From: Leptogorgia sarmentosa
Taxonomy: Eukaryota
NCBI GenBank assembly: GCA_964658305.1
Contig: OZ210885.1
Span: 13,950,001 to 14,014,000 of the forward strand
DNA length: 64,000 nucleotides
Direction of reading: 5' to 3'
This document shows, in pieces, positions 25,491-48,564 of the stretch. The notes under the pieces are model-generated. The model ran no database searches and had not been told where the DNA came from. It saw nothing but the letters and a program-made list of their open reading frames with translations. Position 1 is the first letter of the stretch. Each line of letters opens with the position of its first letter. The position numbers and the translations under genes are program-made.

Positions 25491-25650
25491 TTCGTGTCGG
25501 TCAGTTCAGGCCTCCTTGGCTTCGGCCTTGGTGGTACACCGCCTGGCTGTGCCTTTCTGCGAGGCCCTCTAGGGGGAATCGTTAGGACAGGCTCCTTTTT
25601 CCTTTCCTTTTCAGAGGGATTCGTTCCTCTTTTCTGCTTCCCTTCCTGTT

Positions 25651-26081
25651 CGAGACTGGGTTCCCGTTTTAGTTAGTTTTCGAGACTCGGTTCTCGGTTT
25701 AATTAAGTGTGTGTTCGAGACTTGGTTCTCGGTTTAGTTAGTTTTCGAGACTCGGTTCTCGGTTAAGCTAATTTAGTCTGCGAGACTTGGTTCTCGCTTA
25801 AGTTAAGTGTGTGTTCGAGACTCGGTTCTCGGTTTAGCTAGTTTTCGAGACTTGGTTCTCGGGTTAAGCCAACTTGGTAGTCGAGACTTGGTTCTCGAGT
25901 TAACTACAGTGTGTTTTCGAGAGTTGGTTCTCGGCCTAGTTAATTTAGTATTTTCGAGACTTGGTTCTCGGCCTAGTTAATTTAGTATTTTCGAGACTTG
26001 GTTCTCGGTCTATAGCTTGCGAGACTTGGTTCTCGTCTTAAGCCTTTTTTTCTCTTCCCTTTTTCGAGACTTTGGTTCTCG
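25651..26081 (+). repeat. 13 spaced hairpin repeats CGAGACTYGGTTCTCG in family C 5' UTR
   Basis: Units start at 25651, 25681, 25716, 25746, 25781, 25816, 25846, 25882, 25918, 25955, 25992, 26020, 26065. Confidence 0.9.
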
Positions 26082-26139
26082 AATGAAATTTAGTATATAA
26101 AATAATAATAGTATAGTATAGTAATATTGTGTGGTGAGG

Positions 26140-27345
26140 ATGATTCCTCACGTCAATCGCACCTGCGATGTCACCATTTCTTCCAACATCGAGGCGCATA
26201 GAGTCAACGCAAAGGAGGTCATCGATGAGTTCAGAGGGCAAGTCGATGATTATACTTCTGTGTTTGAGGCTATCGTAATGATGGCCCCTGGCCGCTTCCG
26301 TGTTACCTTTAAGGGTGCATGGAAGATGGAAGCTGCCGAGCACTCGAGTTTAACCGTGCGGGGCTTCCCTGTTGCATCCTGGCCTGTGTCCAGATACACC
26401 TGGGTCAATATTACCCGCCTGTCCTACGGGGTCCCGGATGAAGAGATCTCCAAAGTCCTCAGTGGTTTTGGAGAAATCTGCAAAATAACATCCGAGGTAT
26501 ATTCTCATATTTATACTGGCGTCAGGCATGCGCTAATGGAGATAAAAAATCCCATTCCTTTTCGCATGCGAATTGCCAGCCACTGGTGCTTTGTGCATCA
26601 TAAGGGCCAAAAACGCCTCTGTTTCGGGTGCGGACAGGAAGGCCACAATCGGTCGTCTTGCCCCACTCTTTCTCGGCCTGCTGTTGAGGGGTCAGCACAG
26701 GCTCGAAATGAACCACCGGGTAGTGAGGTACGGCCCATGGTGGGCCAAGAGAATGTGCAGGTTCGGGAGACCATGGCCAAATTGTTGGATACGGTGTCCT
26801 CTGAGCCTCGCACGACCTCCGGAAGTTCGGGCAGCGCCCCTTCTTCGGATTTGCCTCTTGCTCCATCTGGAGCTAGTGAGTCCCCGACACCAGAGGCAAG
26901 TGGTTCTTTACCCAATGAACGTTCACGTTCTCCTCTCCGCAAAAATTCTCACGTGGAGAGTGAAGATGCATCTTCGTGCAAAGTGCCCCCTGCGACCATC
27001 CAACCAGAGGTCGAGCATTCTGAAGGTCTATTACCTGAGAATGTTCCCCTGCCGGAGGATGAGGGACCATATATCCCCTTCTTAACGGTCGGCACTCCCT
27101 CTCTTGAGGGAATGTCCGACTTTGATGTAATTGTTGATGGCTCGATTTCAGACATCGGAAACGAATTATCGGACTCCCTTTTAACTCCTTTTGCCCAGGC
27201 TGGTGCTAGCTCTTCTACTGCAGCTCGCCCCTTGAATCTTTTCGGACCAGAAGTAAATGACGCTTCTGAAGAAACTCTTTTTCCACAGCGCCCTTTTCCA
27301 AAAAGCGGTGCCCCTTCCGATGATGGGTTGGATAGTTGCTTTTAG
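26140..27345 (+). CDS. Family C ORF1 with CCHC knuckle
   Basis: MIPHVNRT, ITRLSYGVP, CFGCGQEGHNRSSC; ATG at 26140 preferred over upstream GTG. Confidence 0.85.
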   Translation: MIPHVNRTCDVTISSNIEAHRVNAKEVIDEFRGQVDDYTSVFEAIVMMAPGRFRVTFKGAWKMEAAEHSSLTVRGFPVASWPVSRYTWVNITRLSYGVPDEEISKVLSGFGEICKITSEVYSHIYTGVRHALMEIKNPIPFRMRIASHWCFVHHKGQKRLCFGCGQEGHNRSSCPTLSRPAVEGSAQARNEPPGSEVRPMVGQENVQVRETMAKLLDTVSSEPRTTSGSSGSAPSSDLPLAPSGASESPTPEASGSLPNERSRSPLRKNSHVESEDASSCKVPPATIQPEVEHSEGLLPENVPLPEDEGPYIPFLTVGTPSLEGMSDFDVIVDGSISDIGNELSDSLLTPFAQAGASSSTAARPLNLFGPEVNDASEETLFPQRPFPKSGAPSDDGLDSCF

Positions 27346-27461
27346 CAAGCTTCTTGCTAACATCGTAACATAGTAAAATAGTAATATAGTAAAATAGTAA
27401 AATAATAACATAGTAATAATAGAAAAGTAATAGAATTGTATAGTTCATCTCCCAAACAATT

Positions 27462-30260
27462 ATGATGGATAAGCAACAATTATCTCTCATAACGTTAAAT
27501 ATTCAGGGATTGCGTAATCCCCGAAATTGGAAAACCTTTTTCTCCTGGCTTAATTGTGCCAAGCCAGATATCATAGCACTTCAAGAGACACATTGTCGAT
27601 CGGTTGAAGAGTTTCAATCCTGGCTAGCTACTGAGTCACGTGAAAATAATAATCTGCAACATTATCTCGTAGAATCTTCTCCAGGCTCTATATGTAGTGC
27701 CGGGGTTGCATTACTTTATAAGCCTAGTTTTAAAATTGAGAAAGTCGCCAAAGACTCCGACGGCCTACTTATAGTAGCCTGCTTTAAGCACATCAACCTG
27801 GAATCTGTGTTTCCGGTTGTAAATATCTACGGTCCAAACCAAAAAAATGCAGGTATAGATTTTTTTGCTTCCTTACAACAGAAGATCGATCCAGCCCTTC
27901 CCACGATTTTGTGTGGGGATTTCAATGTCGCGGTTGATCCGCAGGTCGACCGTTTGGGATGCAATCCAGATTCTTCCTGGGCCTATAGCTGGCCTGCACC
28001 TCTTTCGTCTTTAACTAATAGGTGTGATCTAGTTGACACCTGGCGTTTACACCATCCAAATGAGCGAGCATATACATGGCGACGAGCCAATGGATCCCAG
28101 GCATCCAGATTGGATATGTTTTGGATTTCTTCTTCCTTGCACGAGGATGTTTCCAAGGTGTCTATCCTTCCTTTTTTCTGTTCAGATCATTCGTACGTTT
28201 TTCTCCGAGTGGCCTTTCCGGCTTTGCCTGAACGAGGTCCGGGGGTGTGGAAACTGAATACCTCATTGTTGCGCGATGAAACTCTGTACACAGAGGTCCG
28301 TTATTTTTGGGTTTCGTGGCGGTCTGAAAAAGCTTCCTTTCCGTCCTTGGCCGTTTGGTGGGATGCGGGCAAGGCTCGTTTGAAGGATAAGATTCGTCAT
28401 TTTTCTCGTGGCAAGGCTAAGTCACGGCGGTCAAACGTATATAATTTAGAAACAACCCTAGAACATCTTCACCGGCGGAAAGCCAACGGTGATGATGTAG
28501 CTCACCTTATAAAAGATACTAAGGATAAACTCGAACTCAAACATCTACATGCAGCGGAAGGCGCGCGCATTCGAAGCAAAGAGCAGTGGGCAGAGGAAGG
28601 TGAAACTTCTTCTGCCTTTTTCTTCCGACAGGAGAAAGCGAGGGCATCACGCCGTTTATTTACAGGCATTCGTGACGCACGCGGCACTATAGTAAGATCT
28701 GTTTCCGCGATTTTACGGGTTTGGTGCCTTTTATATGTTCAACTTTTTTCTGCTTCTCTTTTATTTCTCCCCCCAGATGAGTCTTTTTACATCAATAGTT
28801 TAGATAAATCTCTTTCTTCTCAGGAAGCCCAGCTTTGTGAAGGAGAGGTCACATTAACTGAATGCCAACGAGCTTTGAATTCCTTCAAGCGCAATAAGTC
28901 TCCGGGTCTTGATGGTTTGCCATACGAGTTTTACCAGTTCTTCTGGGACATATTAGGACCTGATCTAGTTGCAGTATATAATAATTGCATGGCACGGGGT
29001 GCCCTTTCTTTTTCACAGAGAACTGGGTTAATCTCGCTTCTCTTTAAGAAAAATGACCGCTTGGACGTCAAGAATTGGCAGCCTATTTCCATTTTATGTA
29101 CAGATTATAAAATTCTATCTAAGGTGCTCACCAATCGCCTTAAAGTAGTACTATCTTCTGTTATCTCAGAATCACAAGCTTGTGGTGTTTCTGGCCGGTT
29201 TTCCGGGCTGAATGTCAGGACATTGCAAGATGTAGTTAATTTTTGTAATCGGAACAATACTGGAAAGGCTATTATTTCTTTAGATCAAGAGAAGGCTTTT
29301 GATCGGGTTGACTGGGGGTTTATGTTACACACTTTGGAAAAGATGCATTTTGGTCCATGCTTTTGTGCATGGGTTAAACTCCTGTTTCCAAATGTTCAAT
29401 GGAGAGACCATTAAAATTTTCCAATATGCCGACGACACTTCAATTATTGTTCACTCTGAGCAGGCCCTGCAGTCGCTCTTTTCTCTTTTTGGAAAATACG
29501 AACGAGCGTCTGGTGCAAAATTAAATATAGCTAAAAGCCATGGTCTTCTTTTTGGATCCTGGAAGAATAGAGTTGACCTACCTGTACAGCTCAATTGGTC
29601 CAGTGACACCATAACTGTGTTGGGGTGTCGGGTTGCCAATGTAGAATCTGCCGACTGGGCCTCTCTAGTAGCGAAATTAGAACAGCAATTGTCGATATGG
29701 AAACAGCGTCAGTTGTCCTTTAGGGACCGAGTGCTAATTGTAAATACCCTCTTGGCTCTTCAGGTACCAAGCGACAATTTTTGATCTGCCAAAAATGACC
29801 ATAGCCAAAATCAACAAAATAATTTTTCCTTTTGTTTGGGGGAAAAAGCGCGAATGGATGGCACGTACATCCGTGGTCCAGCCCATCGGAGACGGTAGAT
29901 TAAACATTGTAGACATATCAAATAAGATCTTGTCCATTCGTGCCGCTTGGCTCCGTCGCTTTTTTGCCAACCACATTTTGTGGTGCGCATGAGAGTTTGC
30001 TTCACCTTTTTACCTCTTGCCCCTTTTCGAACTCCGTCCTTGACTGGTTACAGTCAATCCTCAAGAAATATCAACCGAATGCTCCTCCGATACCAGTAAA
30101 CAACATCCTATTTGGATTCGTGTCCCTGACCCGTGTCCGTTTTTCAGCCCTGCTGGGTGTGCTTCGACACCATATTTGGTTAAGTCATATTTAGTTAAGC
30201 CAGCGTTTCGACCATAAAGCCCCATATGTCAACTCCTCACTGAAGAAAGCAAAAACCACC
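27462..30260 (+). pseudogene. Family C ORF2, deleted within and after RT
   Basis: Open 27462-29414 (APE + RT N-half), then deletions relative to 40542-44093. Confidence 0.85.
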
Positions 30261-30759
30261 TTTACTGGTTGTACTGTCGTCGCCTTCTGGACGCTTTTGT
30301 TTTTTGTCTCGTTGTCTTGGACTGGACAGCACATTTGTTTTTATGTTTAATGTTGATTTGTATTGTCCTCCCTTGAAGATCTGGCGGTCGCCTTTATTGG
30401 TTGTACTGCCTGTATCGGATTGGGTTGTTTGTTTGTTTCAATTTTTGTGGTTCGCTTGGATTTGTTCCGAGCGGGTTGCACAGGTGTTGATCTAGGGGTT
30501 GCTGCTCATGTTGTAATCGCCTAGCTTAACATCATCATCTGACCATTTCACCATCATTAGGTTAGGGATCCCTGGGCGTGAAGGTGGATAGCACCAGATC
30601 GTTGAGGCCACTCACGGTTGCATCATGGCACGGGGAGGGGCTCACGACCCCTGTCGATCCGCGTCACCTGTAGTGAATCCCCTGGGTGCGGCGATTTGTT
30701 TGGATCCAGGCTCCATTGCACCGTCGGAGACGACAAGCCCATCGTCGTTCAACTCAAAA

Positions 30760-30926
30760 TAAGATCAAGTGTAGTATCTGTTCTTATCAGCTTAATATCT
30801 GATATGTTAGGCAATGTCCTAACTCATATATTAAACTGATTTTTGGACCTCGGCCATGGGATTGAAGCCTGCTTCGCCCTGGCCATGGGTTGTCTCGGTA
30901 TTGCACTACCTCCGAGTACGGCCCAC
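30760..30926 (+). ncRNA. U2: U2 snRNA 3' portion (nt 22 to ~188)
   Basis: Near-identical to the other U2 3' portions. Confidence 0.95.
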
Positions 30927-31376
30927 TTTCCCCAATTTCATTATTGGGGGAAGATTTCTCTCACTATCAGTTCAAAATTCTAACAAACTATTCTTGTCTT
31001 ACAGATCATCGCCGGGATCCGGCATTTCGTGGCAGGAGATACGTATACATGGCGTATTCAGTGCCATATTCAGTGCGGATGACGGACCACGAATTATACT
31101 TGCATGGTAAGCAGCCTAACACATTCATGTTATAATAGTCTTGGGTAGCTCGCTCGTTGGCCAACAAAGCAGCATCGCTGTTCATGAGATTTACATTCTC
31201 TGATTTTTTTGTAAACTCGTATTGAATATGCAGGTTGAGAATTGTCGGAACGTGCAAACACGGTGCAGTCCGAGAGATCGATCGATCCATACATCGACAG
31301 ACAAACTCATCCCCATGCATTTGTTCCACAAGCATTCCACAAGCGTATAAAAGGTAATCGTATGCGCCATGAAGTC

Positions 31377-31393
31377 ATACTTACCTGACGCAA
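31377..31393 (+). ncRNA. U1: U1 snRNA 5' fragment (nt 1-17)
   Basis: ATACTTACCTGACGCAA. Confidence 0.9.
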
Positions 31394-32030
31394 CCGTCTT
31401 TGTCGTGTCAGGTTCTTCACCCTTGCAGTAGAGGATCTATGCTCAGGAACACGGACCTGTAACTCTGCTCGCAAGGTTTACTACTAGCTGCAGTTCTTTT
31501 TTGCAGACACGCCTTTTTCTTTGTTCTGTCTTCCCGCTGTCTGGCCGGCCTACTAGGTGTCAAGGTAGCAGTTAGTCCTTTCTTTTTCTCTTGGGCTGCT
31601 TCTCTTGTTCTTCGGAACTCGAGTGGTAGCCTTTCCTGCTGTTTGTTGCGCGGTTAGCACGCGACACAGCATAGGGCCGCCCATTACAGTGTTTTTACTT
31701 GTTTATTAGGTAGTGGGTAATAGCTCTTCTTGTGTGTGACCTGTCGAGGAGTCTGTTTGGGGACTACTCAAAGGTCGGTGGTCTTTTTAGGTTCTTTTTT
31801 GCATTCGGTGTTGCGTATTGAGGTCGGTGGACCAACATATCCGTTCCCTGGCTCTTCTTCTTTAAAAAGGACCTTTCCACTTAGTTTTTTGATCCTTAGT
31901 GTGTGTGGGTCTTAATTTGTAGTACTTTTTAAGGCTCAATTTTCTTTGCCACTCGGGTCTTACCTGTTTTGGCAGTATTGATTAGGATCAATTTGGTTTG
32001 TTTAAGTAATTAATAGTAATTTATTATAGT

Positions 32031-33836
32031 ATGTCTGTCCCAACTGTATTTAGTCAGGAGGACTTTGCGAAATGGAACCAGACCACGTCTGTGTTTCTCT
32101 TGCCAAAGAAACTGGTTGGCAAATCCAAAGTCCCCCAGTTGCGGGCAGAACTAGTTAAGGCCATTGGGGAGAAGAGTGTGACTTGTGTTCAGGCTTTGCC
32201 TGGCATGAAATTTCGTGTGTGCTTTTCTTCTCCCGCCGTTCGAAGTAAGTTTGACATCAACGGCCTTAACTTTAGGGGCCTTACCATCACGCCCTTCCCG
32301 GCCTATGAGGAGGTCAAATCCGTTTTTGTGGATCGTGCGCCTCCCCAGATGCCGGACCAATATATTTATGACGCCTTGGCACCATACGGACGTGTTATCT
32401 CGGTGAAGCATTTAACCATCAAGGGCTTCCCGACCGTTCAATCTGGCACACGTATGGTGCAAATAGTTATCGCAAAGGCCATCCCAGCTGAAATTCGCGT
32501 GGTTGGATTTCAGCTGTCGTTCCGTTACCGCGGGCAGCCTCCAACTTGCTTTGCGTGCCAAGAGGTGGGGCACACTGCAAAGGACTGCCCAAAGTCATCA
32601 AAACGGCATGGCCGTAATCAACACCGAAATAGTGCTGGTAAACCACAGCCTACAGAGGCGGAGGACCGTAACAACCGGCCGGCTACGTCCGGCCTTTCTA
32701 AATCGTCCTCTGGCTCTCGCACTGGAGACCTTCGCGAGAAATTAACTCCGCAGGCCACTAACTCGGCAGTGCCCAAGGCCACCAGCAAGTCTAAGCCTAC
32801 AGAGGGTACGGCCAAAGACACAAACAAACCCTCCTCTTCTTCTTCTTCTCGCAAGGGTGACCTGCGTGAGAGGTTAACGAAGAAGACTAGCAAGCCGGTA
32901 CTGCCATCTGTTCCGGCTGTAGCGGATAAGGCCAAGGCTCCTCAGGCCAAGGGGGTTAATCCCCTATTAGTTTCGGCTAAGGAGAGCACCTTCTTGCCGG
33001 CCTCGTCCGGCCCTTCTAAATCGACCTCTTCTTCTCGCCCTAGAGACCTTCGGGAGAAGCTGAGGAAGAAGGTTCCCAAGGCCACCGAGCCGTCGGATGA
33101 CACCACAGTGACGCCTCCGACAGCGGAGCATTTGAAGCGCAAATCCTTTTATTTTGCGCTTCCAATACCCTACGCAAGCCCACGTCCCCTTGGCAAGTCA
33201 TCATCCAAGGCACCTAAGGGTGTTAGGGCCAACTCCACCAGGGATGCTCCTTTTTCCTCTTCCTCCTCGAGTAGTGAGGATGAAGAGGGTATCGTGTCCA
33301 AGAGGGTTTGCCAGTCCGCTCCTGCTCCTTCGACTCCGACCAATGTTAGTGTGTGGCCAGGGTTCACGAGCCCTTCTAGTCCAACTGCCACTCCAGAGGC
33401 CATGGAGGCAGAGGCTGACGTGGACAAATGTTTGAGCGGTGATACGGTCGTTGATCCGCTCATCGCTCAAGAATCTGCGCCTGCTCTTGACTCTGCTGAG
33501 CCAGTCGGATCCTCGGAGCATATGGATGATGCTCCCGTGCCTCCTCAGGCTGATGTGGAAGATGACGATAATGCTGCTTCGCAGGATCCTCCTGCAGTGG
33601 ATATCTTGTCTCAGCAGTCTGAGTCATCCCTCGATCTCTTCGAGGCACTGGCCGCCATTCATGAAGACTCACTGTCTCGTCTTCGCGATGATGTCAGTGA
33701 GGTTGGTGCATCGTCCACATGCACGACCTTCAGTGATCAGCTTCGTGCTGATCAACTCGAGGAGCTCCTTATTGGTGAGCTGCCCACATCTGGGACATCA
33801 GATTCTGATGGCGAGTCTGTTGTCCATCAATATTAA
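32031..33836 (+). CDS. Family B ORF1 (601 aa): RRM-like region, CCHC knuckle, long S/P/K-rich tail
   Basis: YRGQPPTCFACQEVGHTAKDC; uninterrupted. Confidence 0.9.
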   Translation: MSVPTVFSQEDFAKWNQTTSVFLLPKKLVGKSKVPQLRAELVKAIGEKSVTCVQALPGMKFRVCFSSPAVRSKFDINGLNFRGLTITPFPAYEEVKSVFVDRAPPQMPDQYIYDALAPYGRVISVKHLTIKGFPTVQSGTRMVQIVIAKAIPAEIRVVGFQLSFRYRGQPPTCFACQEVGHTAKDCPKSSKRHGRNQHRNSAGKPQPTEAEDRNNRPATSGLSKSSSGSRTGDLREKLTPQATNSAVPKATSKSKPTEGTAKDTNKPSSSSSSRKGDLRERLTKKTSKPVLPSVPAVADKAKAPQAKGVNPLLVSAKESTFLPASSGPSKSTSSSRPRDLREKLRKKVPKATEPSDDTTVTPPTAEHLKRKSFYFALPIPYASPRPLGKSSSKAPKGVRANSTRDAPFSSSSSSSEDEEGIVSKRVCQSAPAPSTPTNVSVWPGFTSPSSPTATPEAMEAEADVDKCLSGDTVVDPLIAQESAPALDSAEPVGSSEHMDDAPVPPQADVEDDDNAASQDPPAVDILSQQSESSLDLFEALAAIHEDSLSRLRDDVSEVGASSTCTTFSDQLRADQLEELLIGELPTSGTSDSDGESVVHQY

Positions 33837-36800
33837 TGGTCTCAACGACCGCATTAAACGAACCGCCCTGGTGGATTGGTTAAAATGTATGAAGGTGGAT
33901 GTTGCATGTTTGCAAGAAACACATGCTCCTTCGCACGAATCCATTAGGAAGTGGTTCGCTAACTCTGGCTTTCGAGTTGTCTCGTCGTCAGTGTCAAATA
34001 AGCGTTGTGGGACGGCTATTCTTATTAAAGATTGCCATAAGATCAAGCAGGTGATCCGAGACGATGATGGACGGTTTGTCCAAGTCTTGGTTGATTTTGG
34101 GGAAGATCAGCTAAGTTTCGTCTCATTATATGCCCCAAATAAGAATCCGGCTCGTAACGCTTTTTTCTCCTCCATTCCTGGTTTAATCGACCTTACCAGG
34201 CCCACATTTGTTTGTGGTGATTTTAATTCTGTTCTAGACGATGATCGGGATAGGCTTCGGCGTGCTTCTTACACTGGTGCTGCCTCTTTGCGCGCCCAGG
34301 AAAGTGGCCCGGCCTTGCAGGCCCTACTATCTCATACCCAGACATATCCGGTGTGGCGTACGTTACATCCCACGCAGACGGCTTATTCCTGGACCCATGG
34401 GTCCGGAACCTTTGGCTCGCGCATCGATATGGTCTGGGCCCCGACTTGTCTGGAACAGTCTATTAGGGAATGTGAATATCATCCCTCCTTTTTATCCGAT
34501 CATCAGTACTTGCTGGTCAAGTTCGATTTTGGTGATCGTATCGTTAGTGGTCCTGGAGTGTGGAAGTTTAACACTTCCCTCCTGGACGACGAGAATTATT
34601 GCACCCTTGTCACTTCTTTTTGGTCCTTCTGGCAGGCCCATTATACACCTGAGGCCTTTCCCTCCATTTTGGATTGGTGGGACCAAGGGAAGTTCTACCT
34701 TAGAGAAGTGACACGCACTTTTTGTCGGTCAAAGGAGCTGGACCGGCGAGAACATAAAGCCTTCCTGACCAAGCAGATGCACAGACTGCAGCGTCTTTTC
34801 GAAGCAGGGGATGCCTCTGCATTCGCTAAGCTTTGCGAGGTACAGGAAGAGCTCCGAGGCATTGCTTTGCATGAAGCGAGAGGGGCACAAGTTCGTGCTC
34901 GTTGTCAGTGGGCTGAGGAGGGGGAAACTTCCTCCTCCTTTTTTCTCAATTTGGCCACTAAGCGACATGCAAAGCAAGAGATGCACTCCATTCGAGACCC
35001 CGACACCGGTACCGTGCGCCACGACCCTTTTGAGATCTTGGACGTCTGGCGGCGGTATTACACCGAACTCTTTACTGCGGCACCCTGCGATACATCTGCT
35101 CAGGATGAGATGCTGTCAAAGCTGTCTCGCCGCCTTAGTAGGGAGGAACGTGCGTGTTGTGAGGGTCTTCTGTCTATAGAGGAGTGTTTCACTGCCCTGT
35201 CGGGTATGGCTAGGGGAAAGACTCCGGGTTCCGATGGCTTTCCCATGGAGTTTTTCCTCAAGTTTTGGTCATGCCTTGGCGCTGATCTGGTTCGCGTCCT
35301 CAACGTTGCTTACGAGGCCGGCCAGCTTTCCACCTCTCAGCGTCGAGGTCTGATCATAGTATTGTACAAGAAGAATGACCGCTTGGAGACAAAGAACTGG
35401 CGGCCGATTAGTCTGCTCAATGCAGACTATAAAATAGCTGCTCGAGCTATTTCGGGTCGTCTCTTAGCTGTCATTGCCTCTGTTGTGGGGCCAGATCAAA
35501 CGTGCGGTGTTCCAGGCCGTACCATCTCCGAGAACCTCTTTCTGATCCGCGATCTAATTGAGTATGCGGAGCACGAGGACATTCCCCTCGCTCTGCTCTC
35601 TTTGGATCAAGAAAAAGCATTTGATCGGGTCGATTGGGGCTTTCTCTTGCGGACTCTGGACACCATGAATTTTGGTCCGGATTTCTGCCGATGGGTAAAG
35701 TTGTTTTACTCGGACGTAGAATCGGCCGTAGTCATCAATGGCTGGACCTCCTCCTTTTTTCGCCCTTCACGGGGTGTGCGGCAAGGTTGTCCGCTTTCTC
35801 CTTTATTATACGTTCTATCGATTGAGGTGTTAGCAGCTAACATCCGCTCTGCCCCAGGTATAACTGGGGTTTTTCTCCCTCAATCGCTGGAACAGTTTAA
35901 ATGCTCTGGGTATGCCGATGATACGACGATTGCGCCTACCACGGATGAATCCATAGAGGCCACCTTCGAGGTGTATTCTCAGTTTGAGAAAGCCTCGGGT
36001 GCTCGTTTGAATCGTGGCAAATCGAAGGGCATGTGGCTGGGCTCCTGGAAGCACCGTACCGATACCCCTCATGGTATCCAGTGGGTTAAAGAGCTCCCAT
36101 TACTCGGTGCAACTTTCAGTGCCGCTGACTATAGTCAGCAGACCTTCGAGCCAGCCGTTTCAAAATTGGAGAAGCGTTTGTCAGACTGGTCTGGACGCAA
36201 ACTGTCCTTTCAGGGCAAGGCCACAATTATCAACACCTTGGCCTTGTCCCAGATATGGCATTTGTGTCACATCTTCCCTGTTCCGAAGTGGGCGGTTCAG
36301 AGAATTCACAAGGCCGTTTGGAAGTTCTTCTGGTCTGGCAAGCGGGATCTTGTTGCCCGCAAAGTCGTCTGCCTTCCCAAATCCAAGGGTGGATTTGGAG
36401 TTATCGACTTCCAACTGAAGGCAGATGCTTTTGCGCTTCAATGGGTAAAACGTTTCTTCGCCGAAGACCGCGGCAAATGGAAGGACTTCTTTATCCATTT
36501 TATTTCTACCTCACTTGGTTGCGAGCCTCGTGAGGCACTTTTAACCTCTTTTTCCCAACGTCGTTTGAGAGCCTTGCCCGAGTTCTACCGTATCATCTTC
36601 CGGGTGTGGCAATCTCTCGACGGTGGTCTTACCGGCAATGACTTGTGCATTGCTGCCTCGTCTGCCTCTCCACTACCTGTGGACAACATATCCAGTAGGA
36701 ATGTATACCAAATCAGCCAAAGCAATTTGAACAGTCAGCCACATTGTATTGCCAAATTCACGCCGCAGTATGGACCTCTACACTGGCCCCAAACTTGGAG

Positions 36801-37353
36801 TCAGCTTCATCTATGTCCATATGACCGGCTCGTGATCGACCTGAATTGGCAAATAGCGCACGGCATTCTATACACGGGCTCTCGCTTGGAAACCCGCTTT
36901 AACATGCCCAACATCGATACGCGCTGTTTCTGTCGAGCAGATGAAGAAACGTTAGAACATCTGTTCTTCGAATGTGAGCTGGCCCGCCTTTTGGTGGCTT
37001 GGGTACATTACAATTTATGGCAGATATGTCCTACTGCCGCACCATTTACCGTCACGGAACTCCTGTTCGGCTTCTCGTCTGAGCGACGGCGCATCGTGCC
37101 CCCAATCATCGTGTGGATGCTCCACGTGATGAAACATACCATCTGGGTGGCGCGCTGTGATTTCCGTTTCCGAGGTAAGCGGCCAATCGCCTCCGATTGC
37201 CAAGCGAAAGCCATCGCTAAAATCAAGTTTGTCCTTGGTCTTTTTGGCCGTAGGTGCAGGCTCCCTGCTCAAGTGCGATCTTTTGAGCGGGATTGGCTCG
37301 CTCGGGGTATTTTAGGACATTTCGAGGGGGAGGAGCTGGTCTTCTCCTTTTAG
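33808..37353 (+). CDS. Family B ORF2: APE endonuclease - reverse transcriptase - CCHC
   Basis: MASLLSININGL, LQETH, GDFN, SDH, KTPGSDG, DQEKAFDRV, QGCPLSP, YADD, CFC...ETLEHLFFEC; likely ATG at 33808, overlapping ORF1 by 29 nt. Confidence 0.93.
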   Translation: MASLLSININGLNDRIKRTALVDWLKCMKVDVACLQETHAPSHESIRKWFANSGFRVVSSSVSNKRCGTAILIKDCHKIKQVIRDDDGRFVQVLVDFGEDQLSFVSLYAPNKNPARNAFFSSIPGLIDLTRPTFVCGDFNSVLDDDRDRLRRASYTGAASLRAQESGPALQALLSHTQTYPVWRTLHPTQTAYSWTHGSGTFGSRIDMVWAPTCLEQSIRECEYHPSFLSDHQYLLVKFDFGDRIVSGPGVWKFNTSLLDDENYCTLVTSFWSFWQAHYTPEAFPSILDWWDQGKFYLREVTRTFCRSKELDRREHKAFLTKQMHRLQRLFEAGDASAFAKLCEVQEELRGIALHEARGAQVRARCQWAEEGETSSSFFLNLATKRHAKQEMHSIRDPDTGTVRHDPFEILDVWRRYYTELFTAAPCDTSAQDEMLSKLSRRLSREERACCEGLLSIEECFTALSGMARGKTPGSDGFPMEFFLKFWSCLGADLVRVLNVAYEAGQLSTSQRRGLIIVLYKKNDRLETKNWRPISLLNADYKIAARAISGRLLAVIASVVGPDQTCGVPGRTISENLFLIRDLIEYAEHEDIPLALLSLDQEKAFDRVDWGFLLRTLDTMNFGPDFCRWVKLFYSDVESAVVINGWTSSFFRPSRGVRQGCPLSPLLYVLSIEVLAANIRSAPGITGVFLPQSLEQFKCSGYADDTTIAPTTDESIEATFEVYSQFEKASGARLNRGKSKGMWLGSWKHRTDTPHGIQWVKELPLLGATFSAADYSQQTFEPAVSKLEKRLSDWSGRKLSFQGKATIINTLALSQIWHLCHIFPVPKWAVQRIHKAVWKFFWSGKRDLVARKVVCLPKSKGGFGVIDFQLKADAFALQWVKRFFAEDRGKWKDFFIHFISTSLGCEPREALLTSFSQRRLRALPEFYRIIFRVWQSLDGGLTGNDLCIAASSASPLPVDNISSRNVYQISQSNLNSQPHCIAKFTPQYGPLHWPQTWSQLHLCPYDRLVIDLNWQIAHGILYTGSRLETRFNMPNIDTRCFCRADEETLEHLFFECELARLLVAWVHYNLWQICPTAAPFTVTELLFGFSSERRRIVPPIIVWMLHVMKHTIWVARCDFRFRGKRPIASDCQAKAIAKIKFVLGLFGRRCRLPAQVRSFERDWLARGILGHFEGEELVFSF

Positions 37354-37706
37354 TCTTTTAGGTTTTTTAATCTTTCTTTCTTCCTCTGCCGTTCCGTGAA
37401 GGGGGGTCGCCTTCGTTGGTTGTACTGCCCAGATCGGTTCGGTAGGGTCTTTTCTCTTTTTAAATCCCCGTTGCTGCCTGTATCAGGCATGCATCGGTCC
37501 ATGTACCGTCCTAGTATGTGTAGTTTTTAATATAGAGTTAAATGCACTAATCGAGGCGTCAGAAAAATAAATATTCTCGGGGTGCATTTAATGAGGAGGT
37601 AGGGATCGTCCCCCTAGTCGTTTGCGTGCCGGTAGCACCCTCCTCGATTTAGGGAAATCCATTGCACGCCCCCCAGTGGGGGTGGATTTGCCTATATCCA
37701 ACATAA

Positions 37707-37867
37707 ACTTACCTGACACGAGAGGCACCTTGATCAACTAGGAGGTCCTCTCAGGACGAGGCCCTTTCATTGCACTTCGACTGGGTTGACTCCTGTGATT
37801 ACCCCTAACGTGAGTAACTCGAGCTCATAATTTCTGGTAGTGGGGACCTGGGTTCACGCTCGTCCCT
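37707..37867 (+). ncRNA. U1: U1 snRNA 3' portion (nt 3 to ~163)
   Basis: ACTTACCTG, SL I loop TGATCAAC, SL II loop CATTGCACTTC, Sm site ATAATTTCTGG, SL IV GGGGACCTGGGTTCACGCTCGTCCC. Confidence 0.93.
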
Positions 37868-38358
37868 TTTATCCTCATCTTATTATTGTGATTTCCCATA
37901 CTCAAAACTGATATTATAAGTGTCGTCGGGCATCCTAGTTTATTGAAGCAACAACAATTCTATGTGTTCTTCACACTGCAGGCCGCGTGTTTCACGAACA
38001 CACGCAACTCGATACTACATCGCGGTCATTCGAAATCTAATATATAACCATGCAATCAATATTCGATTACTCACACCTTGTTGTAGGCACGTAACATGGA
38101 ATGAATACATGAGTCAATCGATACGCGTTGCCAACCGATAATGCATTTTATACTAGACTTATGTTAAACAACCATTTCCAAGTTTCCACTCGTCATTTCT
38201 CCAACCGAAGCGCAACCGGACGCGCTTCGTTCGTGCCATAAGGTTTGCAGCTCATTTCGCTTGCAATTTCGCGGCCGCTAATGGTGGCGCAAAGGAGGAC
38301 CGCATTTTTTCACCTTGCTTTTCTTGCTTAAAAGATGGCGTGGAACGGCGAAGAAGGC

Positions 38359-40400: not shown

Positions 40401-40541
40401 CAAGTTTCTTGCTAACCTAGTAGTAATAAATAGTAAAATAGTAATATAGTAGTATAGTAAAATAGTATCATAGTAAAATAGTAAGATAATATAACCATAT
40501 AGTAAATTAATAGCATAATATAGTATACCTCCCACACATTT

Positions 40542-43500
40542 ATGATGGATAACCAACAGCTATCTCTCATCACCTTAAATATTCAGGGATTGCGTAATCC
40601 CCGAAATCGGAAAACCTTTTTCTCCTGGCTTAATTGTGCCAAGCCCGACATCATAGCTCTCCAAGAAACCCATTGTAGATCGGTTGAAGAGTTTCAATCC
40701 TGGCTCGATACTGAATCTCATGAGAATAATAACTTACAACATTACAAAGTAGAATCTTCTCCCGGTTCTATACGTAGTGCCGGCGTTGCACTACTTTACA
40801 AACCTATTTTTAAGATTGAGAAGGTCACCAAAGATTCTGATGGCCGTCTTATAGTAGCCTGCTTCAAACATATTAACCTGGAATCTGTGTTTCAGGTCGT
40901 TAATATATACGGTCCAAATCAAAAAAACCCTGGCATCGAATTTTTCTCATCCTTACATCAGAAGATCGATCCAGCCCTTCCCACGATTTTGTGTGGGGAC
41001 TTTAACGTCGCTGTTGACCCTCGGGTCGACCGGTTAGGGTGTAATCCAGATTCTCACTGGGCTTATAACTGGCCTGCATCCCTTTCCTCCTTAACAAATA
41101 GGTGTGATCTCGTCGATACGTGGCGTCTACACCACCCAAATGAACGTGCCTACACATGGCGGCGAGCCAATGGATCCCAAGCATCAAGATTGGATATGTT
41201 TTGGATCTCTTCTTCCCTACATGAACATGTCTCCGAGGTGTCTATCCTCCCTTTTTTTCGTTCGGATCATTCGTACGTTTTTCTTCGAGTGGCCTTTCCG
41301 ACTCTGCCTGAACGGGGCCCGGGGGTGTGGAAATTAAATACCTCGCTGTTGCGTGATGAAACTCTGTGCGCAGAGGTCCGTTCTTTTTGGGTTTCGTGGC
41401 GGTCCGAAAAAGAGACTTTTCCGTCCTTGGCCGTCTGGTGGGATGCGGGCAAGGCTCGTCTAAAGGATAAAATCCGACAATTTTCTCGTGGCAAAGCCAA
41501 GTCACGGCGGTCATCCACACACAACTTAGAAGCTACCCTAGAACAACTTCACCGGCGGGAAACCAATGGCGAAGACGTAGCCCATCTTATAAAAGAGACC
41601 AAAGACATGCTCGAATTAGAACATCTACATGCGGCGGAGGGCGCACGCATTCGCAGTAAAGAACAGTGGGCCGAGGAAGGTGAAACCTCTTCTGCCTTTT
41701 TTTTCCGCCAAGAGAAAGCGAGAGCATCACGCCGTTTATTCACTGGCATTCGCGATGCACACGGCACCATAGTTAGATCCGTTTCCGCCATCCTGCGAGT
41801 TTGGTGTCTTTTTTATGTTCAGCTTTTTTCGGCTTCTCTTTTATCTCCCTCGGATGCGTCCTTTTTTATCAATAGTTTAGACAAATCTCTCTCTTCTGAT
41901 GAAGCTCAGCTTTGCGAAGGAGAGGTAACATTACCTGAATGCCAGCGAGCTCTGAACTCCTTTAAAAATAATAAATCACCGGGTCTTGATGGTTTGCCAT
42001 ACGAGTTCTACCAGTCCTTTTGGGACATATTAGGACCTGATCTAGTAAATGTGTATAACGATTGCTTGGCACGCGGTGCTCTTTCCTTTTCTCAGAGAAC
42101 TGGATTAATCTCGCTCCTTTTTAAGAAAAATGATCGTTTAGACGTGAAGAATTGGCGACCCATTTCCCTTTTATGCACCGATTATAAAATCTTATCCAAG
42201 GTGCTCACTAATCGGCTCAAAATAGTTCTATCTTCCGTTATCTCGGATTCCCAAGCTTGTGGTGTCCCTGGCCGGTTTTCCGGGCTAAACGTACGGACAT
42301 TGCAAGATGTAGTCAATTTTTGTAATCGAAGCAAGATCGGTGGTGCCATAATATCCTTAGATCAAGAGAAGGCTTTTGACCGTGTTGATTGGGGGTTCAT
42401 GTTACGCACCTTAGAAAAGATGAATTTTGGTCCGTCCTTTTGTGCATGGGTCAAACTCCTATACACTAACATTTTTTCTCGCGTCCTCGTTAATGGTTTT
42501 GTGAGCGATGCTTTTACCATCACTCGGGGCGTTCGTCAAGGGTGTCCTCTTTCTCCACTAATGTATATCATTGTGGCGGAGACCATCTCCAGCGCAATTA
42601 AAAAAGACCTCAATATTGACGGTTTCGCAATGTTCAATGGGGAGACCATTAAAATTTTTCAATATGCTGACGATACGTCAGTCATCGTTCACTGTGAGCG
42701 GGCCTTACAGTCGCTCTTTTCTCTTTTTGAGCAATACGAACAAGCGTCAGGGGCAAAACTAAACATCACTAAAAGTCACGGTCTTCTTTTTGGCTCTTGG
42801 AAAAATAGAGTTGACCTCCCTGTCCAGCTCAATTGGTCGAGTGACGCCATTACGGTTTTGGGGTGCCGGGTTGCTAACGTAGAGTCTGCGGATTGGGACA
42901 CCTTAGTCACAAAATTAGAGCAACAATTGTCTCTATGGAAGCAGCGCCAGCTGTCGTTTAGAGGCCGAGCGCTTATTGTTAACACCTTGGGGCTGTCGCT
43001 ATTTTGGTACCAGGCGACAATTTTCGATATGCCCAAAATGACCGTTGCTAAAATTAACAAAATAATTTTTCCGTTTGTTTGGAGCAAAAAGCGAGAATGG
43101 ATGGCGCGTACGTCTGTGGTCCAACCCATCGGGGAAGGTGGCTTGAATATCGTGGACATCTCAAATAAGATTTTGTCCATTCGTGCTGTTTGGCTCCGTC
43201 GTTTCCTTCTTAACAACACACACCCATGGTCCTGCTTCTTCTCACACCATATCGAGGCAGCCTTTGGTCACCCGGTTGCTGATGTTCTGGCTCGTGATCC
43301 GATCCCGGCCTATTTAATTAAAAAACTCCCTCCCTGTTACAGGGGTGTTCTTTCATCATGGGTCCTTTTGAAGGGCAGGATCGAGCAGGGCGAATGGGTC
43401 ATCCCTCGTCCTTCAGGGCAACTACTTCCGCTCTCCGAGCTGACTGCTCATACAGGGTATTCCTTGCTCCGGCGCTCCTCCACCGTAGAGCATCGTTCAG

Positions 43501-44093
43501 TAGCCAAATTTAGAGACTGGGGCATTAACGTGGCTTGGCCCGCTGCGTGGGCCTCTTTACACCTGTGGCGCTTTGTGCGGTCAGTGCAAGATACTTCCTG
43601 GCTGTCTTTTCATGGGATCCTACCCACAGCTGACCGTTTGGTCCGCTTTGGCATGAGGGTTGATCCGCTGTGCTATTGTGGAGAGCAAGAGAATCTACTC
43701 CACCTATTCACCTCTTGCCCATTCACTACCTCCATCCTCGACTGGTTCCAGTCAGTTTTCTGTAAATTTCGGCCAAATGCGCCCTCACTGCCAGTGAGTG
43801 CTATTTTATTTGGGTTCCCTCCCACTAGCCATGTGCCCGCTGTCTTTACTGCATTGCTGGGTGTTCTTCGCCACAGCATTTGGCTCAATCGCAACGCCCA
43901 ACGTTTTGACCACGTTGCACCTGACGTTACCACCACCCTGAAGAAAGCAAAAACCTCCTTCCGCTTTCTCGTGCGTATGCACAAGCGGCATTGTCCTCGC
44001 GATCAATTTATTCACGAGTGGCTGGCAGACGGTGTGATTGGCTCATTAACAGAGCAAGATTGGATCCGATTTACCAGGGATTTTATCACCTGA
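40542..44093 (+). CDS. Family C ORF2 (1183 aa): APE - RT - CCHC, intact
   Basis: ITLNIQGLR, LQETH, GDFN, SDH, KSPGLDG, QGCPLSP, QYADD, CYC...HLFTSC. Confidence 0.95.
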   Translation: MMDNQQLSLITLNIQGLRNPRNRKTFFSWLNCAKPDIIALQETHCRSVEEFQSWLDTESHENNNLQHYKVESSPGSIRSAGVALLYKPIFKIEKVTKDSDGRLIVACFKHINLESVFQVVNIYGPNQKNPGIEFFSSLHQKIDPALPTILCGDFNVAVDPRVDRLGCNPDSHWAYNWPASLSSLTNRCDLVDTWRLHHPNERAYTWRRANGSQASRLDMFWISSSLHEHVSEVSILPFFRSDHSYVFLRVAFPTLPERGPGVWKLNTSLLRDETLCAEVRSFWVSWRSEKETFPSLAVWWDAGKARLKDKIRQFSRGKAKSRRSSTHNLEATLEQLHRRETNGEDVAHLIKETKDMLELEHLHAAEGARIRSKEQWAEEGETSSAFFFRQEKARASRRLFTGIRDAHGTIVRSVSAILRVWCLFYVQLFSASLLSPSDASFFINSLDKSLSSDEAQLCEGEVTLPECQRALNSFKNNKSPGLDGLPYEFYQSFWDILGPDLVNVYNDCLARGALSFSQRTGLISLLFKKNDRLDVKNWRPISLLCTDYKILSKVLTNRLKIVLSSVISDSQACGVPGRFSGLNVRTLQDVVNFCNRSKIGGAIISLDQEKAFDRVDWGFMLRTLEKMNFGPSFCAWVKLLYTNIFSRVLVNGFVSDAFTITRGVRQGCPLSPLMYIIVAETISSAIKKDLNIDGFAMFNGETIKIFQYADDTSVIVHCERALQSLFSLFEQYEQASGAKLNITKSHGLLFGSWKNRVDLPVQLNWSSDAITVLGCRVANVESADWDTLVTKLEQQLSLWKQRQLSFRGRALIVNTLGLSLFWYQATIFDMPKMTVAKINKIIFPFVWSKKREWMARTSVVQPIGEGGLNIVDISNKILSIRAVWLRRFLLNNTHPWSCFFSHHIEAAFGHPVADVLARDPIPAYLIKKLPPCYRGVLSSWVLLKGRIEQGEWVIPRPSGQLLPLSELTAHTGYSLLRRSSTVEHRSVAKFRDWGINVAWPAAWASLHLWRFVRSVQDTSWLSFHGILPTADRLVRFGMRVDPLCYCGEQENLLHLFTSCPFTTSILDWFQSVFCKFRPNAPSLPVSAILFGFPPTSHVPAVFTALLGVLRHSIWLNRNAQRFDHVAPDVTTTLKKAKTSFRFLVRMHKRHCPRDQFIHEWLADGVIGSLTEQDWIRFTRDFIT

Positions 44094-44896: not shown

Positions 44897-47800
44897 AGTT
44901 TTATCTTATTGGACGGTGACGAATGTCAAATGAAGAAAATAGCAGCTATAGTAATACAGCCAACTAATAACCGACATCATCCTTTTCGGTATCACCCCAA
45001 GAACAGACCACCACGAAGAAAACCACAACAATCAAAGTATCCTGGAGACCACTGGCACAGCTACCTAGACCTGGTCTCGAGAATAACCAGGGAATAAATG
45101 TCAAAAATCGTAATCGTGCACCCATTCCTAATCTCAACAACAATATTCCTGTAAGAATAACTCATCGACCAGAGCTGACTAAAGAAGTCTATCGTAGTCT
45201 AACTAATCATAGAGTACTAAGAAAGGTCCCTTATCGTAAATTTTACAGCATACCAGCGATCTTATCAGCAAATGTTAGGGGAATTGTAAAGAAAGTTGAC
45301 GAGATTCAACAAGTTGCTGAACCTAATAACATCAATGTAATATGTATAACCGAGACATGGTTGTCTCCAAATGTGCCAGATTCTTCTGTCGCTATCCCGG
45401 GATACAATCTATTTCGGAAGGACCGACTGAATACAATAGGAGGAGGAGCGTGCATTTATTTAAATAATACAATTCCCTGTAAGAGGCTAGAGCAATGTAA
45501 CGAAGAAGGAGTTGAATCTGTATGGATTTCAATTAGACCCTATTGTTTACCAAGGAATATAACATCCATAACACTGTCAGTAATATACCATACGACTTCT
45601 AATCGCGAATCTGAGAATATTATTCTCCGACAACATATTCGGCGTAACCTTGACAACCTATTAACTAATCAGCCTAATGCGCTTGTAATACTTACTGGCG
45701 ACTTTAATCCAACGTCAACTGGATTGAAATCGAAAGATCTGACTCAAACAAATCATCTCAAACAACTTGTCACCTTTAAGACAAGGGATTCTGGTATCCT
45801 GGATTGGTTCCTGACAAATCGGACTGGATTATTTGAATTGTCTCAGTTACCTAAAATTGCATCTTCCGATCATTTCACAATACTGGCGAAACCACTTCTA
45901 GGACCTAAGAAGAACAATGTAACCAAAAAAATTATTTCTCGTGATATGAGGGATAGTGCCTGGCGTGAGTTTGGTCGATGGATAACCCAGAAAGATTGGA
46001 GCCCAGTTCTTAATACTTCCTCCTGCGAAGACAAATTCCAACTATTCATCACAGAGCTAAAGCAAGGTGTCGATCGCTATCTCCCACAAAGGACAGTAAA
46101 AGTTCACCAAACAGATCGTCCATGGATGACAAATAAACTCAAGATATGGATCAGAAAACGCCAAACCGCATTCCAAAGACATGGTAAAAACTCGTCCATT
46201 TATAAACACTGGAGGAATAAAATTCAAAGGGAAATTAAAGAGGCCAAGTCACATTATTATAAACATAAAGTTGCAGAATTGGGACAGACTAACCCCCGGA
46301 AAAGGTGGAAACAAATAAAAAGTCTTATGGGACAAGACATTCAACAGGAGTGGCATTATCAATTTCTTGGTGACAATGGGAATGTTAAGATACTCGCAGA
46401 TATAATCAATGACTTCTTCTTGAGCATAACTGAGAACTTTTCACCGTTATCGCCTCTCAATCCAATTCAGCATGCCCCCAATGAGTTCCTTGTCTCGGAA
46501 GCAGAGGTTTATCGATCACTGTCATCTCTACAAGTAGCCAAATCTGTTGGACCGGATGAACTCCCAAATAAAGTACTAAAGGAATTTGCTATGGAGCTCT
46601 CTCCTGTCATTCAAGATATTTACAATCAGTCCATTAAGGAATCATATATCCCAGATTTACTTAAATCTTCAATTATATCTCCTATACCGAAAGTAACTCC
46701 ACCACAATCAATGGACCAATTGCATAATAGACAAAATTTTTAAAAAGTTCGAAATAGTACAATTCATAACAATAGCGTGAAAGAGTATCCCAAAATTAGT
46801 AAAATGGCAAAGTTTGGGTGCGAAATGTTGTAAAATACGGAAAATATAACCGTGCGAAATTGGCAAATTTGTATACATTTGTATTACGTGCGAAATGAAC
46901 TAACTAATTTAGTTAGCAATTCACGCACGTAATAGAAAAGTATACAAATTTTCCCTACTTTGCACGGTTATATTTTCCGTATTTTACAACATTTTGCACC
47001 CAAACTTTGCAATTTTAGTAATTTTGGGATGGTCTTTCACGCTATTGTTATGAATTGTACTATTTCGAACTTTTTATGAATTTTGCCTATTATGCAATTG
47101 GTCCATTGAGAGTGACTTACGTCCAATATCCCTAACATGCAATTTGACTAAAATTATGGAAGGATTTTTCTGTAGGAGACTTCTATCACAGTTGACAAGA
47201 AAAATTGACCCCCGTCAGTTTGCTCGTAAGGGTCACTCCACTACGGATGCACTACTATTTTTGCTTCAGCCCGTCTACGAGGCCCTCGATAGCGGAAATG
47301 CCTGTGCTCGGTTCTTTTTTGCCGACTTTAGCAAAGGGTTCGACCGTATTGACCACCACATTCTCATGCAGAAGCTGATGGAATTGGATATCCATCCTGT
47401 CTTATATAATTGGATTAATGCTTTTCTTTGTAAAAGAAAACAGGCTGTTAGAATAGGGGGGACTTTGTCAGACTGGAAATCCCCAAATGGTGGTATACCT
47501 CAGGGAACTAAACTTGGTGTTATTCTTTTCTCGGTTATGACAAATAAGCTAATAACTGACTGGCATTTAAGGACAAAGTTTGTCGATGACACAGCTGCGC
47601 TAGAGATTATTCCCAGGAACTCAATTAGTTATCTCAACCATACGGTAGATGAACTACATCAATTCTCTGTCAATCATAACATGAGTCTCAACCCACTTAA
47701 ATGCAAGGAAATGGTAATCAATTTTATGAATAATAACAACTCCATAATAAGGCCTTTTGTAATAGGCAGCAACGTAGTAGAAAGAGTAACCAATTATAAA

Positions 47801-48564
47801 TTACTTGGAGTTCAATTGAGTGAGGATCTCAAGTGGAATAAACACGTTGATTATATCTACAAAAAAGCTTGCAAGAAGTTATATTCCCTCCGCGTACTTT
47901 GTAGAGCTGGCGTTGAGCAAAGAAATATACTAAAAGTGTACCTAACTACTATCAGACCCGTATTGGAATATGCAGTCCCAATATGGCAAGCGATCACTGA
48001 CTATTTAAGTGAAAGAATAGAATCAATACAGACAAGGGCACTTCGAATCATCTTCCCCTCCATAGACAATTATAATGAGGCGATGATAATGGCACAGATA
48101 CCAACATTGGAGAGCAGACGCGACCTGTTATGTAAAAAATACATGACTAAAATGAAGAAGGAGGATCATCCCCTGCATTTCATGCTCCCAAAACATATGA
48201 TAAGCGAATGCAGGTATAGCCTATGAAATGGGCAAGACAATACTATTTTATTTAAGGACACAATTAAATGTAGAACTTTAAGATCCGAACAATTTTTTAC
48301 TTTTAAATACTTTTGAATATTCTTAAATATCCCTAATTATACTTAGTTTTATAATTTTATCTACTATGTAAATATAACTCTAGTAATACTCTGAGCCTAT
48401 AAATATTGTGATTATGTAAATACATATAGCCATAAATATAGTCAATGTTGTAAATATAGTAATTTAACATAGCCTTAGTAATACCATGCATGGACTCGTT
48501 AATTCAGTGTAATTACTGCAAGAGAGTTCCAATAAACATCAAATCAAATCAAATCAAATCAAAT
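44897..48564 (+). mobile_element. L2/CR1-group LINE with (CAAAT)n tail
   Basis: ITETWL, GDFN, SDH (to 46743); DFSKGFD, GIPQGTKLG, KFVDD (47144-48226); AATAAA then (CAAAT)5. Confidence 0.85.
46713..47104. mobile_element. Fold-back MITE (392 bp), 2-bp AT duplication
   Basis: Whole element is an imperfect palindrome GGACCAATTGCATAATAG...CTATTATGCAATTGGTCC; its removal restores LINE codons PQSIESDLRPISLT. Confidence 0.9.

Follow-up and report, generated by a model that had tools for sequence, protein, structure and literature searches.

The 64,000-nt stretch of DNA analysed here (hereafter, the window) carries a U1/U2 snRNA gene array that is interrupted by three families of Tx1-type LINEs, designated A, B, and C, and the element copies, ORFs, terminal stems, and snRNA remainders placed in it below lie on its forward (+) strand. 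In an Rfam scan of the window, three U2 remainders and one U1 remainder were detected; every U1 or U2 5' piece located in the window is followed by a retrotransposon, and no intact U1 or U2 gene was seen in it. Family B is represented by a full-length element in U1 (copy B3, 31394–37706), which lies between a U1 5' piece (31377–31393) and a U1 remainder that resumes from nt 3 (37707–37868), with a target duplication of about 15 nt of U1 that contains one mismatch in this copy. B3 comprises ORF1 (32010–33836), ORF2 (33436–37353), and a 3' UTR (37354–37706). A second copy, B1 (3338–9239), is flanked by a U1 5' piece (3321–3337) and the 15-nt duplication (9240–9254). Family A is represented by the 3' part of copy A1 (1–2688, with ORF2 ending at 2218), after which U2 resumes at about nt 23 (2689–2859), and by copy A2 (12431–18341), which is placed between a U2 5' piece starting at 12406 and a U2 remainder (18342–18512). 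Copy C1 of family C (25197–30760) is similarly framed by a U2 5' piece from 25172 and a U2 remainder (30761–30931), and copy C2 (38384–44262) retains an unbroken ORF2 (40524–44093) and has lost its 3' end. A and C therefore join U2 at nt ~23, and B duplicates U1 nt 3–17. An internally deleted U1 gene is located at 51890–52020, and the U1 upstream region before it looks intact. Fragments of RT that are ~22–29% like the Tx1 ORF2s, together with a 399-aa frame, are nested in the array among the regions 23005–24417, 44971–48226, 55132–56331, and 63671–64000, and a tandem repeat occupies the end of the window.

Pfam searches identified a zinc knuckle in ORF1 of families A and B, with none scored for ORF1 of C, and an APE endonuclease, a reverse transcriptase, and a C-terminal zf-RVT zinc finger in ORF2. 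The ORF2 proteins are 49% (A/C), 39% (A/B), and 37% (B/C) identical, and the best-scoring homologues with a name, in Paramuricea clavata (58%) and in Stylophora pistillata ("Transposon TX1 149 kDa protein", 44%), point to an anthozoan host. These domains are those of the Tx1 clade, as is sequence-specific insertion with target duplication (15 nt of U1 in B1 and in the relative L030, 3–5 nt in U2), with the qualification that the RT trees contain no named Tx1 reference and that Keno-type elements form the nearest other group in them.

The heptamer ATTGCAC is found at all five visible 3' ends in the window, at 2643, 9194, 18296, 30715, and 37661, and is preceded by C each time. In 5/5 of these ends, the target sequence begins 39 nt after the end of the heptamer; an earlier note on this DNA had given 38–39 nt, which holds for the window, although the distance spreads to 26–43 nt when relatives in all hosts are included, and a fixed 39-nt ruler is thereby ruled out. 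The heptamer occurs 14 times in the window against 9.8 expected, which is no enrichment, and the chance of finding it within a 20-nt window at one independent end is ~8e-4; its above-chance features are position and conservation, not window-wide frequency. In the predicted terminal stem of B3 (37655–37689), AAATCC (37655–37660) pairs with GGATTT (37684–37689), and the heptamer (37661–37667) forms a bulge after the C37660–G37684 pair, followed by a GCCCCC/GGGGGT sub-stem (37668–37683). The corresponding stem of B1 (9188–9222, heptamer 9194–9200) is preserved in a UTR of which only the last ~90 nt are left, the deleted part corresponding to 37286–37617. In families A and C, GCTCC/GGAG closes an 11-nt loop that contains the heptamer, whereas in B the heptamer is bulged between two helices. 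These predicted hairpins are located at 2637–2659 in A1 (heptamer 2643–2649, closed by C-G), 18290–18312 in A2 (18296–18302), and 30709–30729 in C1 (30715–30721), although in longer contexts the C1 heptamer is drawn into a stem and keeping it unpaired costs 3.7 kcal/mol. A second A1 heptamer (2622–2628, a predicted bulge) is not conserved, as it is deleted in A2 and altered in C1 and in other sequencing runs. The upstream ATGGCAC, ~90 nt away in A/C, was considered as a second site and rejected, since it is predicted to be paired where folded (A2).

Sequence variation between runs bears on the same structures. Among the differences listed, contigs of run X11 carry the compensatory pair C37670T/G37681A (C-G to U-A) in the B sub-stem, and contigs of other runs carry a G-U to A-C opening in it. 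No substitution was listed in the A hairpin (2630–2661) in the three runs covering the site, whereas the extra heptamer at 2622 varies. The heptamer is also present in the host snRNA sequences, in stem-loop (SL) IV of U2 (2828, 18481, 30900) and in SL II of U1 (37769), as the earlier note had pointed out; the element loops, however, match U1 SL II, with its C-G closing pair, and in the host U2 SL IV the heptamer is preceded by U and the predicted loop is longer.

The 3' UTRs of A and C are homologous and 85% identical, and therefore two end types are present in the window, not three. A relative of the C lineage from another host (L027) has the A/C UTR as well, so that this UTR is conserved by descent; a recent swap of the C end from A was ruled out, because A (84–85%) is no closer to C1 than L027 is (87%). 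The flanks of B had been described as unrelated to those of A and C, which does not hold, since B shares with them a GGTCGCCTT..TGGTTGTACTGC block (37405, against 2300, 17967, and 30386) and a TAGGGATC..GGTAGCACC block (at about 37600–37639). The two end types of the window thus share an origin, in place of three convergent ones, and the ATTGCAC stem-loop stands at all five ends at the positions first described.

The first of these blocks belongs to a second conserved 3'-UTR motif, GGTCGCCTT-N3-TGGWTGYACT, which is often present in two to three copies between short stems. Its sites are located at 2248, 2300, 17896, 17967, 30386, 37405, 44160, and 59695 in the window and in the relatives L027, L037, L039, L043, L050, and L105. 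Its invariant TCGCCTT resembles the 5' half of U5 snRNA loop 1, and no U5 match was returned by Rfam in the three UTRs scanned (A1, B3, and L039). In the same three UTRs, Rfam returned no U1 or U2 match at E<=10; these three UTRs thus lend no support to a recent, SINEU-like capture of an snRNA fragment, which would have left extended U1- or U2-derived sequence.

Relatives in other hosts were chosen by their ORF2 protein. Metagenome contigs were scanned with a 58-sequence ORF2 alignment, 345 stretches were confirmed, and the best 80 of 345 were analysed, many of which represent one family in several assemblies. A 3' end was visible in 39 of them, and the tallies exclude the remaining 41, along with a chimeric locus (L105), a truncated one (L038), and other loci without a visible end. 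Among these best 80 of 345, seven loci with a visible end group with the window elements in the tree, and all seven carry the motif. Motif-bearing elements are inserted in U1 at the site of B in L028, L030, and L031, and the end of another U1-inserted, motif-bearing element is found at the start of L033; a dispersed family (L039, which equals L040, L043, and L050) carries the motif at three non-snRNA sites, for which no target duplication was found. U1-targeting LINEs with U1 nt 3–17 duplicated were recorded at 3321–9254 and 31377–37721 of the window and in L028, L030, L031, L033, L089, L092, and L102. On the other side of the tree, again among the best 80 of 345, the motif was present in the last 75 nt of 0/32 ends, which comprise 13 Keno-type elements at U2 nt 39, four Keno-like elements elsewhere, and 15 members of a dispersed family. 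An AATAAA precedes the end in 16/17 of the Keno-type and Keno-like elements, the 15 dispersed sister-clade ends being excluded from this tally because they were found via their AATAAA, and in motif-bearing elements it is located upstream of the A run in 0/12. A search for the motif in Keno and in elements that do not target snRNA genes, proposed earlier as a check, weakens the idea of routing to snRNA loci, since U2-targeting Keno-type elements lack the motif and a dispersed non-snRNA family has it.

In a tree of 36 rows, 11 motif rows and 17 non-motif rows are parted by one branch (support 100/100), which amounts to one change, and this split carries a long-branch warning; a quick tree of 51 rows was also built. 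L057 falls inside the motif clade, and in the 673 nt after its ORF2 the motif is absent and no end could be recognised. The dispersed family that bears the motif branches from within U1-flanked families, so that snRNA targeting was probably ancestral in the motif clade and lost in that family, and since this family retains the motif, the motif follows lineage, not snRNA targeting.

Several hairpins and variants were recorded alongside these ends. In L028 (~235–241), the U2 SL IV of that host reads ATAGCAC and its elements keep ATTGCAC, which fits elements tracking the U1 SL II type. A tRNA T-arm-like hairpin, GGGGTTCGAYTCCYC, is located 85–125 nt upstream of the heptamer in L039 (6717–6733) and also in L028, L030, L031, L043, and L050; it gave only a weak match to the mascRNA model (E 2.2). 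The dispersed family of the sister clade (L042, L044–L049, L051, L052, L054–L056, L059, L060, and L098) has a conserved GTGC-TTT-GCAC hairpin, containing a TTGCAC that is predicted to be paired, about 40 nt before AATAAA. In one Keno-type subclade (L065, L071, L079, L084, L093, L095, L103, and G001 C68 4347), a G+C-rich hairpin that follows AATAAA and precedes the A tail is conserved. In viral contigs, 25 matches to a motif-plus-U2 pattern showed no U2 continuation, 53 matches to a motif-plus-U1 pattern showed no U1 or ORF2 similarity, and the ORF2 alignment gave 10 candidates with 0 confirmed.

A search of genome contigs with the motif-plus-U1 pattern returned 10 loci, of which one (L109) is a chance match and nine come from animal U1/U2/5S contigs within a bacterial genome bin (G001). 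The latter (L106–L108 and L110–L115) are animal array contigs present as host contamination. Junctions in G001 were tallied by snRNA patterns alone, in nine regions of five contigs. Among 25 U1 matches, 11 follow an element end, with ATTGCAC in 10/11 and ATCGCAC in 1/11 (some of these are duplicates); among 19 matches to U2 nt 39, four follow an element end, with the motif in 0/4 and AATAAA in 3/4. Five G001 ends have two perfect C-ATTGCAC loops, 48–49 nt apart, and a copy with a mutated terminal site retains a perfect upstream site. Where both borders are visible, the two-site copies are 1.2–1.9 kb long and lack RT, whereas in RT-coding relatives the upstream site is degenerate (C5, C57, L028, L030) or absent (C46:6096, L031); one short element has a single site. 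More generally, short RT-less elements (1.0–1.9 kb) occupy the same U1 site as autonomous copies, some in tandem with them (C46 6046–4766, 21466–20301, and 32359–31079; C68 3973–2200 and 25108–24066; C71 11250–9329). Two U1A-type loops are present in most of them, and a 462-aa ORF1-like frame in one.

The closing pair is C-G at all end types, and the adjacent pairs take three or more forms; AUUGCAC is located directly 3' of the C-G pair in 11/11 ends. In 12 aligned U1-inserted ends, 97.7% of the cells of the terminal stem are paired, two-sided changes occur in 6/8 of its pairs, and the closing pair is C-G in 11/11 ungapped rows. The whole structure has 13 pairs with two-sided changes, compared with 6.3+-1.7 in shuffled alignments (0/500) and a maximum of 6 when slid, values that are favoured by the fact that the tested structure was drawn from these 12 sequences. 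By energy models, exposing the heptamer costs 0–3.7 kcal/mol; it is unpaired in the minimum free energy (MFE) folds of A1, A2, and B, and covariation favours the open form. The exceptions are one copy with ATCGCAC and one in which the 3' stem arm is lost. On its 3' side the loop varies widely, from 3 nt to a 16-nt hairpin, and the heptamer with its C-G pair is invariant across motif-bearing ORF2s that are only 37–49% identical. For recognition, U1A/SNF depends on A1, C7, and a C-G pair that closes the loop, and it does not read the loop's 3' side (PMC4114683, in part). The features conserved in the elements (A1, the heptamer, and the C-G pair) are those that the protein reads, and the varying 3' side is the one that it ignores. 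Conservation and covariation between families and between hosts strongly support mimicry of the U1A/SNF site by the predicted loop, as first suggested in the earlier note. Non-gnathostome metazoans have one SNF, which binds SL II tightly without U2A' (PMC5992148, in part), and the simplest account of the element loop is that RRM1 of the host SNF probably binds it.

As to the function of this binding, the reading that we favour, at a probability of roughly 0.4, is that SNF acts as a positive cofactor of the 3' end or the RNP, replacing the AAUAAA-plus-poly(A) route of the sister clade. The U1 SL II-type AUUGCAC loop, 26–43 nt from the 3' end, would bind the host's free U1A/SNF. More tentatively, the bound SNF may stabilise or mark the short-tailed RNA end, and since SNF is a nuclear protein that shuttles, it may assist re-entry of the RNP into the nucleus for target-primed reverse transcription. 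A positive role is favoured because the motif is located where the sister clade has AATAAA and because RT-less parasites have more sites, not fewer; the RT-less short copies, which must compete in trans, have two perfect sites. In human, not cnidarian, cells, a reporter was expressed more strongly with one SL2 in its 3' UTR, for which mRNA stability or recruitment of CPSF160 was proposed (PMC9136276, in part). U1A can aid CPSF160 (PMC9136276, PMC2874999, both in part), and it shuttles and enters the nucleus on its own (PMC2289521, in part). On the other side, the trade-off between motif and AATAAA is a single split of the tree, that is, one evolutionary event on which all cross-clade contrasts depend; L057 lacks the motif despite its place in the motif clade, the ATCGCAC copy and the copy with the lost 3' arm deviate from it, and MFE folds sometimes hide the heptamer. 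The A-rich termini (AAATAY/AACAT + A4–10) may also be weak L1-style poly(A) signals, so that the RNAs would be polyadenylated after all. The loop likely goes back to an ancestor that targeted snRNA genes and either captured U1 SL II long ago or converged on it. In an extended form of the cofactor reading, snRNP mimicry would have taken the place of the poly(A)-signal route, SNF would be an obligatory RNP cofactor, RT-less parasites would win against the autonomous copies by doubling the site, much as Alu doubled its SRP domain, and the SNF freed when an insertion breaks a U1 or U2 gene would let the loop sense intact snRNA genes and tune the spread of the elements, a scheme that we regard as speculative and improbable. 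The roles considered here need not be mutually exclusive.

The two-site copies also fit repression of the kind exerted by U1A on its own mRNA, in which SNF at one or two sites would block poly(A) addition, as the earlier note had proposed for the window elements; variants would involve read-through into the snRNA remainder, nuclear retention, or silencing feedback when broken U1/U2 genes free SNF. In B and many relatives, the heptamer lies in an internal loop or bulge just upstream of the A-rich end, as in the polyadenylation inhibition element (PIE) of U1A; upstream of the terminal site, the five two-site ends of G001 have a perfect second one and other ends a degenerate one, and the A tails at snRNA junctions are short (2–7 A). 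Two U1A molecules are needed for inhibition, however (PMC5071671, PMC2874999, both in part), and a single site is present in window families B and C, in A2, in L031, and in the dispersed family. Where two sites occur, they sit in separate hairpins; the inhibited tail of poly(A) polymerase (PAP) is conserved in vertebrates, not in flies (PMC9136276, in part); and the A runs vary, from 5 to 10 in the dispersed family and from 4 to 10 across relatives. With one conserved site and no upstream AATAAA, a block to polyadenylation is unlikely for the window elements, although the two perfect sites of some short relatives speak in its favour.

Somewhat less probable is that the loop serves as the template-recognition signal of the elements' own ORF2p, as in stringent LINEs, its identity with the U1A site being a relic of U1 capture. 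LINEs of the L2 clade need a 3' stem-loop, the loop of which is read by their ORF2p (PMC4176376, in part), and the motif sits at the end of the RNA from which reverse transcription begins, and RT-less copies retain it. The loops of L2 LINEs are family-specific, however, whereas the heptamer and the C-G pair are the same across the divergent ORF2s compared above, and the pattern of variation in the loop matches that of U1A. An ORF1 product as a U1A-like reader was also considered and rejected, as the ORF1 fragment of B gave no U1A-like hit among solved structures (17 weak matches, the best, E 0.003, to RBMS1).

A further suggestion of the earlier note was that the RNP is routed to snRNA loci; in this reading, SNF would aid targeting by bringing it to clusters of snRNA genes or to Cajal bodies. 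The idea has lost ground and is now doubtful. Most motif-clade families of known target sit in U1 or U2, the nesting of the dispersed family among U1-targeting ones means that the motif probably arose in an snRNA-targeting ancestor, and Cajal bodies associate with U2 genes (PMC2196410, in part). Keno-type elements, however, target U2 without the motif (0/13, and 0/4 in G001), so that it is not necessary, and the three independent motif-bearing insertions outside snRNA genes (L039/L040, L043, and L050) indicate that it is not sufficient; Tx1 targeting is ascribed to the endonuclease (PMC4494074, in part). Chance or neutral carry-over of ancestral sequence would accommodate the confinement of all motif-bearing ends to one clade and the lack of window-wide enrichment, but it is largely refuted by the covariation and is thus very improbable, as the stems have turned over with compensatory changes around a fixed heptamer and closing pair and, in A, the upstream heptamer varies between runs and the terminal one does not.

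U1A/SNF RRM1 and SL II form one of the best-characterised RNA–protein pairs. The element loops share with U1 SL II the heptamer, the C-G closing pair, and the free 3' side, and those of the dispersed family and of C68:24104 also have a 10-nt loop, but they are located in a retrotransposon 3' UTR on stems unrelated to host U1. Alu RNA is dimeric and bound by SRP9/14, and it is loosely comparable as a retroelement RNA that keeps a site for a host RNP protein. SINEU elements have snRNA-derived (U1/U2) 5' heads and poly(A) tails (PMC4494074, in part). In contrast to both, the window elements belong to an autonomous LINE lineage, the site is at the 3' end, and only the nucleotides read by the protein are kept. 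The PIE of vertebrate U1A mRNA also presents AUUGCAC in a structured loop near the RNA 3' end, and two sites are found in some relatives of the window elements; the PIE itself has its two sites side by side ahead of a poly(A) signal, and its target is the vertebrate PAP, whereas the window families have an invertebrate host, one conserved site (B, C, and A2 have only one, and the second site of A1 is not conserved), and no AATAAA upstream of the A run in 12/12 ends, although the A-rich termini could be weak signals. The stringent L2 LINEs UnaL2 and ZfL2-1/2 (PMC4176376, in part) similarly have a conserved terminal stem-loop near the start of reverse transcription; their loops are family-specific and read by ORF2p, whereas the loop described here is invariant across distant families and matches the site of a host protein.

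Keno is the closest named system, a Tx1-clade element specific to U2 snRNA (Kojima and Fujiwara 2004, via PMC4494074 and PMC4640811, both in part). Like the window elements, it is an APE-RT non-LTR retrotransposon in snRNA genes, occurs in cnidarians, and has a related ORF2. Keno inserts before U2 nt 39 (PMC4640811, in part) and mostly ends in AATAAA plus an A tail without the heptamer, whereas A and C are inserted before U2 nt ~23 and B in U1 with nt 3–17 duplicated, on the other side of the 100/100 split and with a U1A-type loop. Among known snRNA targets, U2 is assigned to Keno and Utopia and U1/U6 to Dada (PMC4640811, PMC8869645, both in part), and the targets of Tx1 elements include U2, U5, and 5S (PMC4494074, in part). 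A U1-targeting LINE, the U2 nt ~23 site, and this motif are not named in the available parts of PMC4640811, PMC8869645, and PMC4494074, and no description of a U1A site in a retrotransposon 3' end was found in a literature search outside Repbase, where these families may be catalogued, and most subscription journals. The U1A/SNF-site-like 3' end of these Tx1 elements is real, conserved, and covarying, and it appears to be undescribed. The mimicry is directly testable, with the Keno clade in the same hosts as a ready negative control, and site-specific LINEs, such as those found here in U1 and at U2 nt ~23, are of interest for targeted insertion. LINE RNAs are known to define and protect their 3' ends and to re-enter the nucleus by means of either a poly(A) tail or a loop that their own protein recognises; a docking site for a spliceosomal protein of the host, kept throughout a lineage, would, if true, add a third route.
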